A program made the position numbers and the translations under genes. The notes below the pieces were generated by a model that was not told the origin of the DNA, did no database searches, and saw only the letters and a program-made list of their open reading frames with translations. This document shows positions 9,041-56,535 of a stretch of DNA of 64,000 nucleotides, piece after piece; position 1 is the first letter of the stretch, and the number at the start of each line of letters is the position of its first letter. The stretch is from positions 34,162,001-34,226,000 of the forward strand of contig OZ024757.1 in assembly GCA_964016885.1 (NCBI GenBank), written 5' to 3'. This stretch comes from Eledone cirrhosa. Lineage: Eukaryota.

Positions 9041-9437
9041 TGTAGAAGTTCTATTTAAATTGTTGGTATATAACAAGCAAATATTTTTATAACTGATATA
9101 AAGCACTCAACAAATTATTGGAGTAAAAATACGATATATTAACAAATGGAAACTATATTTATAAAACCATATTTCAAGGACACCAAGTTAAATTATGGTG
9201 TGCTTTCATCAGATAAAATATAATATAGATCAGTTTTATAAATAAATATTGACATACCCGGGAGCTTCCAACAGAAATGGTCGCATTCTTTAAGGGTGTG
9301 TCAATATTTATTTATAAAACTGATCTATATTATATTTTATCTGATGAAAGCACACCATAATTTAACTTGGTGTCCTTGAAATATGTATAATGAAATAAAT
9401 ATGGTTTTATAAATATAGTTTCCATTTGTTAATATAT

Positions 9438-9440
<3 letters not shown>
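9041..9440. mobile_element. Family A palindromic hammerhead element
   Basis: ~90-bp unique tail, then ~125-145-bp inverted arms around a ~35-nt loop. (TA)n on both sides. Confidence 0.85.
9333..9397 (+). ncRNA. Type I hammerhead ribozyme, family A
   Basis: tattttat-CTGATGA-aagcacacca[taatttaact]tggtgtcctt-GAAA-tatgta-TA-atgaaata. 8-bp stem I, 9/10-bp stem II, near-palindromic stem III, AUA site. Confidence 0.85.
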
Positions 9441-9515
<75 letters not shown>

Positions 9516-14072: not shown

Positions 14073-14360
14073 ACAATATATTAACAAATTTATATTTATA
14101 AAACCATATTTATTTCATTATACATATTTCAAGGACACCAAAGCAAATTATGGTGCGCTTTCATCAGATAAAATATAATATAGATCAGTTTTATAAACAA
14201 ATATTGACATACCCTTATAAAACTGATCTATATTATATTTTATCTGATGAAAGCGCACCAATAATATATGGTTTTATAAATTTTGTTGAGTGCTTTATAT
14301 CAGTTATAAAAATATTTGCTTGTTGTATCCCAACAAATTAAGTATAACTTCTACATATAT
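14073..14360. mobile_element. Family A palindromic hammerhead element (opposite orientation to 9041-9440)
   Basis: Same arms. Tail on the right (ttgagtgctttatatcagttataaaaatatttgcttg). (TA)-rich flanks. Confidence 0.85.
14111..14175 (-). ncRNA. Type I hammerhead ribozyme, family A
   Basis: Minus strand tattttat-CTGATGA-aagcgcacca...tggtgtcctt-GAAA-tatgta-TA-atgaaata. Confidence 0.85.
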
Positions 14361-23719: not shown

Positions 23720-24030
23720 GCACATGGCTTAGTGGTTAGAGCATTGGGCTTGCAATCGAAAGGTTGTGAGTTCAATTCTCAGACCGGGTGATGTGTTGTT
23801 TCCTTGAGCAAGACACTTTATTTCACATTGCTCCAGTTTACTCAGCTGTAGAAATGAGATGATAGGGACTGAGTTCCCTATCATTCCACTGCAAAGTGGT
23901 CGTGGAGGTGCCACGGCAAAAAAGCACCCAGCACTCACTGTAAATGAGGTTGGTGTTAGGAAGGGCATCCAGCTGTAGAAATCAAGCCAGAATCAGTTCC
24001 CGTCCCACCCTTGCAAGCAGGGAAAAGATG
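23720..24030 (+). mobile_element. Full-length tRNA-headed CORE-type SINE
   Basis: tggcttagtggttagagc A box, gagttcaattc B box, CORE-like domain. Related copies at 25160-25490(-), 28405-28525, 32385-32672, 42560-42690(-), 56570-56890 and 62580-62675(-). Confidence 0.85.
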
Positions 24031-25574: not shown

Positions 25575-25632
25575 ATACCTGATGAAATCACCGGATTCAT
25601 ATGGAATCCGGTGATTGAAATGATCATAGTAT
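25575..25632 (+). ncRNA. Type I hammerhead ribozyme with perfect 13-bp stem II, family B
   Basis: atac-CTGATGA-aatcaccggattc[atatg]gaatccggtgatt-GAAA-tgatca-TA-gtat. Palindromic stem III ATGATCAT, AUA site. AATAAA and (TA)n follow. Confidence 0.85.
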
Positions 25633-27521: not shown

Positions 27522-27934
<413 letters not shown>

Positions 27935-34500: not shown

Positions 34501-36215
34501 TCACCACACCACCATCACCACCACCATCACCACCACCACCATCACCACCACCACCATCACCACACCACCATCACCACCACCATCACCACCACCACCATCA
34601 CCACACCACCATCATCACCATCATCACCACCATCACCACACCACCATCACCACACCACCATCACCACCACCACCACCATCCTTCTCCAGGCCTGAGTACA
34701 CCAGATTTTTTCCAGAGAGAGGAAGAATCGACCTTAGTTCTAGACTGGTACTTTTTTTTTTTTTTATTGACCTTGAAAGGATGACAGGCAGAGTTGACCT
34801 CGGCAGGATTTGAACTCAAAGAGCCAGAACCAATACCATAAAGCATTCTATCTGATGTTCTAATGACTCTGCCAATTTGCTGCTTACCAAAGTACTACAG
34901 TGTCATAATTTCACATCAAGAATCTTGCAAAATAAATACGACAAAGTAACTTATAAATTAGACACAGAGCTGTTACAGTTTATTTTTTATATTTGGCAAG
35001 ACGAGGTGGGGATGGGGTGAGGTGCAGAGTTGGATGAGGGCATGTGGAAGAGGAGTAGGTGGAGGGTGTGAGGTGGTGGCAGAGGAGAAGTGAAGAAAAG
35101 GCAGAGGAGATGATGAAAAGGAGGAGGAGAGGATAGAGGGAGAAGGGGGAGAGAATGAGGAAGGGATGGAGGGGATGAGAAAAAAGAGATGAGAAGGTGG
35201 AGGAGGAGGAGGCAGAGAGAATAAGGAACAGGAGGGAGAGAAGGATGATGTATGATGATGGTGAAGAGTTCATTTAAAAAAAAAAATGATATCTTCCCCA
35301 CCCCCCCCGCCTCTTTCTACCTCCCTTTCTAATATTGATGTGTGGGAGGAGAAAAAACTCCAAAGCCTATATATATTTGTTTCTACTTTAGGCACAAGGC
35401 CAGCAATAACCCAGTTCATTACTGGTACTTTATGAACTATTGTAATCAAGTAAACAGACTGGGACAATAAACTTTTAGTTTCCCTTTGATCTGCATTTTT
35501 TTTTTATTTACTCCATTAGAGTTTAGAAAACAAAACGCATACCTCTGGTAAAATAGAATTATTTTATCATCTATTATCTTCATTTGAAAAGTACTGGATT
35601 GGCAGAATTGGTAGAGTGTCAGACAAAATACTGTGCAGCATTTAGTTATGAATTTTCTGTCTTTAGTTGACCATACTTTGCAGCACAGATTTACAGCACT
35701 TTACGTTCTGAGTTCCAATCCCACCAAGGTTAGCTTTGCCCTTCCTCCTCACAGGGTTGATAAAATAAAGCACCAGTAATGCACTGGGGTCGATTTAATC
35801 ATCCCCCACCACTACCAACAAAAAAAAATTGGTAGAGTATTGGATGAAATGCTTTGTGGTATTTGTTTCAACATTTCACTTTCTGAGTTTAAGTCCTGCC
35901 AAGGTAAGCTTTGCCTTTCATCAGTATGAGGTTGTTAAAATAAAGCACCAGTAATGCACTGGGTCGATTTAATCACACACACCCATCACCATCACCACCA
36001 CCAAAAAAAAAAAAAAAAAAAAATGTTGGCCTTGTGCCTAAATCACAAAGCATTCTATTTGACAAGGGAATGGCTTTGCCAATTCACCATCTGGATAAAA
36101 TAAATATAAACACTTCAAAATAAACAGTTTCGTATTTTAAAAATAAGGGCAGTTTCAGGCAATTTCGTATAAAAAACTTTTTTATTCATATTTTCCTATG
36201 GATTCCTTTTAGTTT

Positions 36216-45665: not shown

Positions 45666-46380
45666 TATGTATGTAAAAGGTAAACAGAAATAACAACACA
45701 ATCGGTACAATATATGGAAGGTATATATTAGGTTAATGCTTGATATAGCAGGAAGAGGGTCTTAACGTTTCGAACGCTAGTCCTTCATCAGAAGAAAGAA
45801 TGAGAAATAAAATAGATTGAGGGGACGGGCGGGATGGAATCGGAAAAAATGTCTTTAGATAAAAATAACAGGTCCATTTATGTTGACATCTCTTGCAAAA
45901 CTGTTGGTACTGGCGTTTTGTGTCTGATTTATTCTTTAGAAAAGTGGATGATGGAGCGTGTCTACCTGAAATGGAAAAAAAAAACGTTTTGTAAAAAGAG
46001 CTATACTTGTTCATGTGCGTAAGCGTGTGTGTGTTATTATACGTCCGTATGAAGCTAAGAAGAAATGTGTGTGTATATGTAAGTAAAGAGTGTGTGTGCA
46101 TGTAAGTATGAAGCTATGAGCAAAAGTATGTTAATATAAGGGTGCGTATGTGTGTATACAGAGCTGCGAAGGGAAAAGTGGAGTGAGTATATTTAATCGG
46201 TCTGTATTAGTTGTAAGAGATGTTAATGATCATGAGAGAGTGATAGGAATCTAGGGGTGAATGTACAAGTGCATGTGATAATGGACAGAGTATTAAAGAA
46301 ATTGGGGAGGTGAGTTGAGTTCAAGAGGGGAATAGGACCTAAGGCAGTGAATTAGACTCTGTTAGTTTTTCACGCTGACA
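45666..46380 (-). mobile_element. 3' remnant of a Penelope-like retroelement (GIY-YIG C-terminus plus pLTR with hammerhead)
   Basis: Minus strand 46379-46311 translates VSVKN*QSLIHCLRSYSPLELNS, resembling the PLE endonuclease end (EQxLIxxLxTxxPxGLN). The hammerhead lies ~520 nt downstream and the element ends at (TA)n. Confidence 0.65.
45760..45795 (-). ncRNA. Minimal Penelope-type hammerhead ribozyme, family C
   Basis: Minus strand tctt-CTGATGA-aggactagcgttc-GAAACGTT-aaga. Classic PLE-type loopless palindromic stem III (ACGT). Confidence 0.8.
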
Positions 46381-51800: not shown

Positions 51801-54455
51801 CCTGTGGCTAATCAACAACAACTACAATATCCTCATCAATCAAGTATTATCAGCACTATCATTATCATCCTCATCATCATCATCATCATCATCATAAATA
51901 TGACCACTATCATCACCATTATCACTACCCCATCACCACTACCACTATCATCCCTATCATCACCACCACCACCACCATCATAACCACTACGACTATCATC
52001 ATCATTATCATCATCACCATCACCATCATAACCACTACGACTATCATCATCATTATCATCATCACCATCACCATCATAACCACTACGACTATCATCATCA
52101 TTATCAACATCATCACCATCACAACCACTACCACTATCATCACCAGTACCACTATCATCACCATTATCAACATCACCATCACCATGGCCATCATCACTAC
52201 CGCTAACATCATCACTCTCATCACCACTACAATCATCACCACCATCATCACTACCCCCATCACCACCATCACCACTACCACTATCACCATCATTATCACC
52301 AACATCACCATTACCACTATTATCTCCGTCATCACCACCACTGCCACCACCACTACCACAAGCAACATCATCCCCATCACCACGGCCATCATCACCATCA
52401 TCCCCGTCATCACCACCACTATCATCATCATCACCCTCATCACCACTACAACCAACACTATCCACCGCTGCCATCACCACCATCACCACCACTATGACTA
52501 TCACCACCATCATCACCATCATCACCACTATGACTATCACCACCATCATCACCATCATCACCATCATCACCACTACCACTATCATCACCATCATCACCAC
52601 TACCACTATCATCACCATCATCACCACTATCATCATCACCACCACCACCATCATCACCACTACCACTATCATCACCATCATCACCATCATCATCACCACT
52701 ATCATCATCACCACCACTATCATCATCATCACCACCACCACCATCATCACCACTACCACTATCATCACCATCATCACCATCATCATCACCACTATCATCA
52801 TCACCACCACTATCATCATCACCACCACCACCATCATCACCACTGCCACTATCATCACCATCATCACCATCATCACCACTATCATCATCACCACCACCAC
52901 CACCATCATCACCACTGCCACTATCATCACCATCATCACCATCACCACCACTATCATCATCACCACCACCACCATCATCACCACTGCCACTATCATCACC
53001 ATCATCACCATCATCACCACTATCATCATCACCACCACCACCATCATCACTATCATCACCATCATCACCACTATCATCATCACCACCACTATCATCATCA
53101 CCACCACTATCATCATCACCACCACTATCATCATCACCACCACCACCATCATCACCACTACCACCATCATCACCATCATCACCATCATCACCACCACCAC
53201 CACCACCATCATCACCACTACCACCATCATCACCATCATCACCACCACCACCATCATCATAAATACACTCAGCCCCATCATCACTACAATCATAATTAAG
53301 AATTTGAAGACATTTATTTATATAACTAGCTTTCTAATGATTTGTCTGGTGTTAGGTCAATAAACTGGCAGAATTGGTAGAGCTTCGGATAAAATACTAT
53401 TGTGGTATTTGTCCTGACTCTTTATGTTCTGAGTACAAATCTTACCAATGTCAACTTTACATTTTATTCTTCCAGGGTTTATAAAATAAAGAACCAGTAA
53501 TAAATTGGGGTTGATAAAATTGCTGGCCTTGTGCCTAAATTAGAAATCATTATTAATCTGTTGTCTGGAATATAGTTTAATAAAAGTTCTCACATAGAAT
53601 TATGATGGAAGGTCAGCTCTATATCACAGAACCAAAGGCAGTTTCAGGTAATTTGGTATCAAAAGGGTTTGGTTGGTGTTTGGAACATAACTTAACAAAG
53701 GTTCTTACATAAAATTATGATGGAAGGTCAGCTCTATATCATAAAACCAAGAACAGTTTCAGGCAGTTTGGTATCAAAAGGGTTAGATTGATGTTTGGAA
53801 CATACCTTACAGGTTCTTACATAAAATCATGATAGAATGTTCTTTTTGTTAACTATAAACGTTTTAAAATGAATACATTTGTATCATAGAACTAGGGATA
53901 GTTTGGTATCAAAAGGCTTAAGGAATTTAACAATTTTGAATTTCAAAAAGAGAGACAATAACAACATCAGCAAAATAAAATTATTTCCACATTAGCCAAT
54001 CCCTAATGAATATTCATGTAAATTATCGTTAAACTTTAGCATCTTAAAAGAGCAAATTTTGTAACATCTGTTGTCCTGTAACATTATATTAACATTTTAC
54101 TTGATCGAACTCTAGATTGTACAGGGTGGGGAATGGAATTTTTTAAATCCTTTTATTCTTTTACTGATTTCAATCTCTAGATTGTGGCCATGCTGGAGCA
54201 CCACTTTGATTTAATCAAACATATCAAATTCAGTACTTATTTGTTTTCAAGTATGTTGCACAAATGCAAACATAGATGTGGGCATACAAACACACACACA
54301 CACATGTATATGTACCTATATATATATAGATAGATACAAACACATACATATATATATATGTTTATATATGTATATATATATATATATATATCGTCATCAT
54401 CATTTAACGTCCTCTTTTCCTGCTAGCAAGGGTTATATATATCTATATAAAAATG

Positions 54456-54605
54456 AATATAGAAATGCTTCTACAGGACTAGAACTGTTTCCTTCAAATG
54501 AAACAGTTCTAGTCCTGTAGAAGCCATTTCTATATTAAATTTTGTATATACTTTACTAATGTATTGAGTACCTTACTTACTATGGTTACCCCAATTGAAC
54601 CTGAG
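54456..54605 (+). mobile_element. Family F palindromic element
   Basis: Near-perfect hairpin 54456-54536 (ttctacaggactagaactgtttc / gaaacagttctagtcctgtagaa) plus a tail with TGAGTAC that ends at (CA)n. Confidence 0.75.
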
Positions 54606-54664
<59 letters not shown>

Positions 54665-54799
54665 CAAAAGGGATATTTAATTTGTTGTTAATTCAACAAA
54701 TATATATGTTTATAACTGATTCGAAGCACTCGACGGGTTTTCTGGAGTATAATATCAATGATATTAAATAAATGGAAACTATATTTATAAAACCATATT

Positions 54800-54860
54800 T
54801 ATTCTATTATATATATTTCAAGGATACCAAAACTTTGGTACGCTTTCATCAGATAAAATA
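54800..54860 (-). ncRNA. Type I hammerhead ribozyme, family A (left arm)
   Basis: Minus strand tattttat-CTGATGA-aagcgtaccaaagttttggtatcctt-GAAA-tatata-TA-atagaata. Confidence 0.85.
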
Positions 54861-54983
54861 CAAAGTTTGTTTTATAAATATTGACATATCCAGGAACGAG
54901 ATCTTAACGGTTCAAGTTTTTCCTGGATATGAACCGTTAAGATCTTCTTCCTGGATATGTCAATATTTATAAAACAAACTTTG

Positions 54984-55044
54984 TATTTTATCTGATGAGA
55001 GCATACCAAAGTTTTGGTACCCTTGAAATATATATAATAGAATA
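54984..55044 (+). ncRNA. Type I hammerhead ribozyme, family A (right arm)
   Basis: tattttat-CTGATGA-gagcataccaaagttttggtaccctt-GAAA-tatata-TA-atagaata. Confidence 0.8.
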
Positions 55045-55086
55045 AATATGGTTTTATAAATATAGTTTCCATTTATTTAATATCAT

Positions 55087-55126
<40 letters not shown>

Positions 55127-55128
<2 letters not shown>

Positions 55129-55590
55129 TGGCTGCAAACTCTCATAAAAGTATTGCAATCGCTTGTCAGATTCAGATGTGTGATGCTCGGATATGGCTTT
55201 CCAGGCCTGCTAGAGACTTGCACTTCTTCTCACATTGACGACAACTATGAATCTCCCTGGCCTCAGGTCTTGCATCAGGTTGCCTGTGAACCTTCACAAA
55301 GCTGTGGAGATCATAGTTCACTGGTTCTCTTTGAACATGGCTGCGACTGTGGCTCCTGAGACCAGATTTGCTCAAGCAAATTTTTCCACACTCAAAGCAC
55401 TTCAATTCAATGGAGACACCGATTATTTTGAGAGATACACCAGGGCATTGCTTTTGCACATCCCGTTTGATCTTCTTAGGCTCTATGCGTCTGTCCTCAA
55501 AATTATGGACCCCATCATTCACCATTCCATGCCAAGTTTCTCTTTCAAGAGCCCTCTATCTCCCAGTCAGCCACCATCAAACCAGTTTGA
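55127..55590 (-). pseudogene. RTE/BovB-like LINE C-terminal remnant with two C2H2 zinc fingers
   Basis: MVNDGVHNFEDRR...CFECGKICLSKSGLRSHSRSH...CRQCEKKCKSLAGLESHIRASH. Confidence 0.75.
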
Positions 55591-56294: not shown

Positions 56295-56340
<46 letters not shown>

Positions 56341-56343
<3 letters not shown>

Positions 56344-56535
56344 GTTCCAGAACAGTTAATTCACCATTTCCAAGAACAATATGTTTCACCTAGGACGGAT
56401 CATCAGCTCGGTATAAAAATGGTGAAACATATTGATCTCGGAAATGGTGAATTAATTGTTGTGGAACCACTTCTACCAAACTCGTCCCATGGACTGAGTG
56501 CTCTACCACTACGGATATAGCCCACCAGTGTTCTA

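Follow-up and report, generated by a model that had tools for sequence, protein, structure and literature searches.

A hammerhead-bearing palindrome in Eledone cirrhosa as two head-to-head truncated ends of a Penelope-like retrotransposon, likely twin-primed at two fixed RNA sites

Background

Why would a short piece of chromosomal DNA carry a hammerhead motif on each of its strands, within a long and nearly perfect inverted repeat? The question is raised by a locus of Eledone cirrhosa in the window studied here, i.e. the whole 64-kb stretch of DNA analysed, for which a sequence-only reading had proposed a likeness to viroid-like RNAs, a product of fold-back, self-primed reverse transcription, or a built-in conformational switch. 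Hammerhead viroids and viroid-like RNAs have motifs in both polarities, each polarity with its own ribozyme, on the imperfect rod of a circular replicon. At the present locus, in contrast, a single motif occurs twice in chromosomal DNA, the second time as a near-exact antisense copy of the first.

Retrotransposons offer another setting for such motifs. According to PMC4209133 (Cervera and de la Pena 2014), dimer-type minimal hammerheads occur in Penelope pseudo-LTRs, dual motifs lie on opposite strands about 100-700 bp apart in Schistosoma, and scattered motifs are related to truncated elements. PMC8557442 (Craig et al. 2021) describes the Hydra clade of Penelope-like elements, including Penelope-13_HM and Hydra-1_Obim, and reports for Penelope-13_HM a 5'-truncated inverted copy with the same hammerhead on both strands. 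The origin of the inverted ends and one-sided tails of Penelope elements is stated as unresolved there as well as in PMC11167929 (Frangieh et al. 2024). On octopus Penelope hammerheads, our search of titles and abstract openings found nothing further.

Results

Geometry of the palindrome and its flanks

The inverted-repeat arms lie at 54752-54914 and 54930-55092, each 163 nt long, with 5 mismatches (97%) and 15 nt between them, in good agreement with the near-perfect arms of about 160 bp described before. Spacer included, the palindrome is 341 bp long (54752-55092). The earlier span of 54662..55092 is right as far as this palindrome is concerned, and too long by the positions 54662-54751, which are the tail of the element and belong to the left arm only. 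On the left side, a (TA)n target microsatellite with (CA)n before it (54634..54662) borders the tail of about 90 nt (54662..54751, minus strand), which forms the 5' end of the unit in full-length copies of the element. Then follows the left arm, a 5'-truncated pseudo-LTR with the element sense on the minus strand (54752..54929), to which the 15-nt "spacer" (54915-54929, minus strand) also belongs, being ordinary element sequence. The natural leader hairpin of the element, with an outer stem of 10 bp, is located at 54887..54929 on the same strand (z = -4.3 against 200 shuffles). At 54929..54930 the two truncated copies are joined head to head in a blunt junction, with neither overlap nor filler, and the right arm on the plus strand (54930..55092), a 5'-truncated pseudo-LTR without tail, ends at 55089-55092 in the right (TA)n target microsatellite (55089..55126). 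The locus is the shortest form of the standard insertion of its family, namely a tailed copy (54929 to 54662, minus strand) and a tail-less copy (54930-55092, plus strand) between (TA)n runs; the outer ends lie in TA-type repeats on both sides in 34 of 41 complete pairs of the family.

Hammerhead motifs of the two arms

The claim of one hammerhead per strand is confirmed, with cores CUGAUGA...GAAA at 54992-55028 on the plus strand and at 54852-54816 on the minus strand, one in each arm and 140 bp apart. Both motifs (54986..55042, plus; 54802..54858, minus) are of type I and dimer-type, having a helix I of 6 bp, a helix II of 11 positions, a palindromic helix III AUAUAUAU and the cleavage triplet AUA, and from this assignment of helices and triplet we predict cuts at 55036/55037 and 54808/54807, the same places as in the earlier prediction. 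When the arm is shuffled 20,000 times with dinucleotides preserved, none of the resulting sequences fits the hammerhead descriptor. The minus-strand motif passed it, and the plus-strand motif failed because of two adjacent mismatches (C-C and A-C) that weaken its helix II; to judge from these letters, the plus-strand motif is decaying in helix II. The pairing was compared in 22 hand-picked copies, mutually related, from the Penelope-like family of the locus and its sister families: the motif structure pairs in 94.2% of cells against 90.3% in shuffled and 38-59% in slid controls, and 6 of 10 helix II pairs are changed on both sides. Since the copies are related, this result is to be taken as support and not as a probability, and the helix III columns, invariant among the compared copies, are uninformative on covariation. 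A core CUGANGA / GAAA / NUH with helices I-III is present, supported by covariation. Rfam gives no hammerhead match in the 64-kb window at the gathering score, and in 54500-55300, with E up to 10, it lists no hammerhead and only hairpin-driven microRNA models below threshold.

In folding predictions, either hammerhead, with its short helix III of the dimer type, has a monomer fold probability of about 1e-5. The two had been called intact, which holds for the presence of a motif in each arm and fails in that both are short-helix-III dimer-type motifs and the plus-strand one is mismatched in helix II. The expectation that the long hairpin would compete with ribozyme folding fares better, as folding of both strands is predicted to bury the ribozyme, with a helix I probability of 0.0000 on both strands in the full palindrome versus about 0.2 for a lone arm. 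Like the hammerheads described in PMC4209133, those found here are of type I with a long helix II and a weak palindromic helix III, and would depend on dimers; compared with the strictly minimal type of that description, the 6-bp helix I and the 8-nt palindrome of helix III are nearer to the canonical metazoan type.

The arm is the end of a Penelope-like element

A similarity search of the genome with the arm gives 1751 first-look candidates, and among the 40 scored the best copies are 98-100% alike. [quoted passage not shown] In the Atlas these frames group with RT/HTH_animal clusters (0.96-0.97) and with a GIY-YIG cluster (0.95); Pfam on three frames gives nothing meaningful, a PDB sequence search with the frames gives no match, and in all 11 near-full-length loci that were fetched the frame is broken. 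The element unit is about 3.6 kb, and the hammerhead sits in the pseudo-LTR on its sense strand. Partial tandems that form pseudo-LTRs, together with an inverted 5'-truncated copy, are found in L123, L127, L129 and L131, and among them L123 has the layout published in PMC8557442, namely an inverted truncated copy with tail, a pseudo-LTR, the frame and a second pseudo-LTR. In six full-length loci (L060/L122, L066/L123, L070/L124, L072/L125, L074/L126 and L077/L127) the upstream pseudo-LTR continues through the tail of about 90 nt into the 5' UTR and the start codon, by which positions 54662-54751 of the window are identified as tail. The arm corresponds to the 3' end (pseudo-LTR) of a Penelope-like retrotransposon with a high copy number.

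Examined by eye, the long copies carry DKT, a CxCX5C linker, and CxxC plus CxH near the end of the endonuclease. These motifs and the (TA)n flanks match, at the level of sequence, the Hydra clade as described in PMC8557442, which likewise has a C-terminal GIY-YIG, DKT, the CxCX5C linker, CxxC and CxH around the endonuclease end, a sense-strand hammerhead near the 3' end with a short palindromic helix III, and (TA)n targets. The present family differs from that description in having RWR in place of RWK, a unit of about 3.6 kb where the clade is "generally" below 3 kb, and a tail of about 90 nt against 30-40. Its hammerhead is unlike that of Hydra-1_Obim, so that, as far as the hammerhead sequences tell, it is a separate family. 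On the whole, the family is new, and the opposite-strand hammerhead layout arising from truncated Penelope elements is already in print. We also considered a non-LTR retrozyme and rejected it: what is copied here is the truncated end of a coding unit of 3.6 kb, and in the fetched loci short non-coding hammerhead units are not arrayed head to tail.

Truncation near the leader hairpin

The 5' ends of 35 of the 41 best copies fall in one 35-nt window, and 61 of 115 copies, in a sample deliberately enriched for long ones, end from -15 to +20 of one position just before the leader hairpin, most short copies of the family ending in or beside the 5' strand of this hairpin. A reverse transcriptase stalled by the hairpin is expected to stop at its 3' foot and not past it, so the RNA may begin there. 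It is tentatively suggested, at rather less than even odds, that the RNA begins near the leader hairpin and that most cDNAs end there for this reason, the palindromes then being two copies of the 5' leader of the transcript; against this, the upstream pseudo-LTRs of several full-length copies extend 75-620 nt beyond. The short copies were also considered as a separate young subfamily, an idea rejected because long copies are equally alike over the hammerhead part.

Three further features of this region are recorded here. A long pyrimidine tract with CAG/G just before and in the leader hairpin resembles a 3' splice site; no spliced copy is seen among the family copies examined, and a spliced intron was rejected as an explanation of the tract and CAG, since three copies that start exactly there share no upstream exon. 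In L021, 75 nt upstream of the leader hairpin, there is an octamer, ATTTGCAT. The hairpin itself has a double change, AAG/CTT for AGG/CCT, in 2 of 31 scored copies, too few for covariation (L126 1480-1780 compared with 54887-54929 of the window).

Head-to-head junctions of the family

All fetched loci together, sampled by best similarity to the queries and not at random, contain 72 distinct head-to-head junctions after de-duplication by genome place, and 31 of these are excluded from the tail count as an outer end is broken or unseen. The 41 junctions with both outer ends at defined sites all consist of one tailed and one tail-less arm, with no tail/tail and no none/none pair; four of them were classed by following the tail on through a whole tandem unit. 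Leaving out two segmental duplicates, the 39 pairs correspond to p ~2e-12 for independent 50:50 ends. Queries other than the tail yielded 28 of the 41 complete pairs. Moreover, the 41 best copies of the arm, picked blind to the tail, include 20 tail-less, 19 tailed and 2 that end elsewhere; an inverted partner is present in 27 of them, three of which belong to one duplicated junction, and missing in 14.

The reach of the two arms varies among the complete pairs. In 18 of 41 (17 independent) the tail-less arm extends at least 30 nt further 5' and has no internal tail. The tailed arm is tail only in 7, where the arms hardly overlap, and the partner lacks an internal tail in 6 of these 7. The 5' ends are at most 30 nt apart in 15 pairs and the tailed arm is longer in 4, giving 19 undiscriminating pairs; at the locus itself the tailed arm reaches 15 nt further 5'. 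Concerning the junctions, 56 were scored, with overlaps of 0-1 nt in 15, of at least 2 nt in 14, and extra letters in 27, the latter being partly locally templated and partly due to a poor reference match. This spectrum suits end-joining of two cDNA ends. Both outer ends match the (TA)n target over about 4 nt (ATAT, TATA).

Other palindromes and fragments in the window and in fetched loci

Directly left of the palindrome, 54434-54607 is an unrelated palindrome-plus-extension with arms at about 54444-54488 and 54497-54548 (89% alike), which seems to hold the back half of a hammerhead only. Related sequences occur at 2694-2855 and 27629-27751; in the second of these, complete CUGAUGA cores are present on either strand. 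The sequencing depth of this palindrome is very high, including in organism B, which almost lacks the Penelope-like family of the locus. An older sister family (70-82% alike) has two head-to-head insertions, at 9052-9449 and 14091-14345, each with a tailed arm, and the former with hammerheads on both strands. CUGANGA...GAAA cores of other families are located at 25579-25620, 35880-35924, 45768-45791 and 56384-56406, the last within an inverted repeat at 56340-56471. In addition, a weak tRNA match (31.2 bits) at 23725-23782 is possibly the head of a SINE. Outside the window, head-to-head pairs of kilobase scale are present at L046 2179-6396 and L057 2777-4623; one (1336 nt, 95% alike) belongs to the locus's own family and lacks outer ends, and the other is of another Hydra-like family with a self-match of 1853 nt. 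Fragments of other Penelope-like families, with other GIY-YIG/RT types by eye, occur near family copies, on the minus strand at L048 4625, L048 6407 and L055 2859, and also at L057 3797 and 4989.

Discussion

Taking these results together, we read the locus as two 5'-truncated hammerhead-bearing ends placed head to head in (TA)n and likely twin-primed at two fixed RNA sites, with a probability of about 0.7. In LINE-1 twin priming, internal priming on the RNA by the second target strand results in an inverted segment; there the second site is variable and the segments barely overlap, while in the present family neither site varies and the overlap of the arms, which is frequent, creates the palindrome. 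In such an insertion the element protein, predicted to be a dimer in a relative, would nick both strands of (TA)n. One 3' end would prime at the boundary of pseudo-LTR and tail and the other at the tail's far end, the two sites being about 90 nt apart on the element RNA and each offering about 4 nt of AU that match the target, and the two cDNAs would grow toward each other until their 3' ends are end-joined. Priming by both nicked strands at two fixed positions of the RNA, followed by end-joining of the cDNAs, is, as a mechanism, somewhat more probable than its negation in our judgement. The pairs with a short tailed arm (18 of 41) call for a second priming on a sense-strand template. The hammerheads would be passengers in this process and, if acting at all, would probably act as dimers within the tandem transcript of the element; in a transcript across the palindrome they are predicted to be buried.

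Reverse transcription as the origin of the palindrome is a point on which the sequence-only reading stands; the fold-back form that it gave to this origin does not fit 18 pairs with a short tailed arm, nor the blunt junction at the locus. In a fold-back scheme, the first cDNA, or else an antisense template, would snap back and copy itself, and resolution by the endonuclease would trim the tail from one end. Self-priming has been proposed in PMC3846280 (Arkhipova et al. 2013), and PMC8557442 ascribes the tail to endonuclease-mediated resolution. A few junctions fit this proposal, among them that of L008, which has an overlap of 10 nt exactly at the leader hairpin and identical arms and looks like a true snap-back; overlaps of at least 2 nt are found at 14 of 56 junctions, and the tailed arm is the longer one at the locus, a geometry compatible with fold-back and to that extent against twin priming. 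A fold-back cDNA, however, copies only what it holds, so those 18 of 41 pairs, in which the tail is on the short arm (a tail-only arm in 6) and absent from the long one, lie beyond simple fold-back. Besides, the junction 54929..54930 has no overlap and the right arm starts 28 nt earlier than a hairpin snap-back predicts, although a 2-nt snap-back at the leader hairpin could be read into it, and precise trimming at the identical site in every pair is an extra assumption. The kinship of the arms might be expected to help, and the partner is indeed often close kin, being in the closest tenth of copies in 8 of 16 pairs, with a mean divergence of 3.5% between arms versus 4.3% to other copies. Such kinship suits either fold-back or twin priming with one template, and the locus is uninformative in this respect, its partner being mid-ranked with 55 of 114 other copies closer. 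Two arms from different sub-lineages were considered as well and rejected, as the rare letters of the left arm recur in one of two segmental duplicates in L031. On balance we regard fold-back as unlikely.

The remaining explanations have even less in their favour. The short palindromes could form a non-autonomous unit of their own, similar to a retrozyme or SINE, whose transcript would be copied in the form of a hairpin RNA, and both the common end of 35 of the 41 best copies within one 35-nt window and the report of non-autonomous hammerhead elements derived from Penelope ends in bioRxiv 10.64898/2026.07.22.740005 speak for it. It is nevertheless very improbable, as the junctions vary by locus (segmental duplicates aside), so that the palindrome is rebuilt at each insertion; long copies are among those 97-100% alike over the hammerhead part, and no tandem array of short units is seen in the fetched loci. 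Hardly any weight is left for a selected conformational switch, or for a viroid-like RNA, with a ribozyme in either polarity, that was copied into DNA, although both strands carry a motif and a rod of about -250 kcal/mol is predicted. The likeness to viroids has to be given up, for the arms are antisense copies of one and the same retrotransposon end and not two ribozymes on a rod-like replicon, and each strand has a single dimer-type motif whose same-sense partner is missing. A built-in switch is unlikely too: among loci the partner arm is of freely varying length and frequently without the hammerhead, and it is itself missing in 14 of 41 best copies, the plus-strand helix II is decayed, and the perfect duplex is predicted to leave no alternative fold. 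No function of the palindrome is indicated. An assembly artefact would be in accordance with the warning of PMC8557442 that such structures trouble assemblies, and in four sequencing runs no read or contig spans the stretch. We find this reading scarcely believable, since there are 5 differences between the arms, whose ends lie at two distinct sites typical of the family, and 72 distinct junctions of like architecture are spread over many contigs with a strict tail rule that is beyond a mirrored read.

Published systems bear on two-site twin priming from both sides. The Adineta vaga elements Pen2 and Pen3, for which self-priming, possibly on an antisense template, is proposed in PMC3846280, are described with head-to-head inverted pseudo-LTRs, an optional one-sided tail and short junction palindromes as found here; in contrast to that proposal, the present counts favour two separately primed cDNAs, target duplications being unreadable in (TA)n. 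For PAc, a Poseidon element of Anolis, PMC11167929 reports in vitro that both target strands are nicked and extended, that reverse transcription starts at two internal RNA sites bracketing the tail, and that hammerhead cleavage is dispensable. The two start sites around the tail and the AT-rich target are shared with the present family. However, in the assays described there no difference in start site was seen between the two strands, nor any coupling of strand to site, so that the strict rule of one of each arm seen here draws no biochemical support from them as yet. Our search of titles and abstract openings, which covered papers other than subscription ones (the older Penelope papers being among the latter), found no twin-priming account of Penelope ends.

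Conclusions

The locus is ordinary transposon debris and is not to be read as a viroid-like or regulatory RNA. With a chance that we put just short of even, twin priming at two sites is the obligate route of integration of Hydra-clade Penelope elements, a route in which one protein-RNA complex would nick both (TA)n strands and make one cDNA from each end of the tail, without exception one of each, and the palindromes would be paired "strong-stop" copies of the 5' leader. If this is true, the inverted pseudo-LTR and the one-sided tail would come from a single mechanism. The tail rule in 41 of 41 complete pairs and the 18 pairs beyond fold-back give sharp predictions for the in vitro assay that already exists and for a genome-wide count, and the family is a natural test set for the insertion mechanism of Penelope elements.
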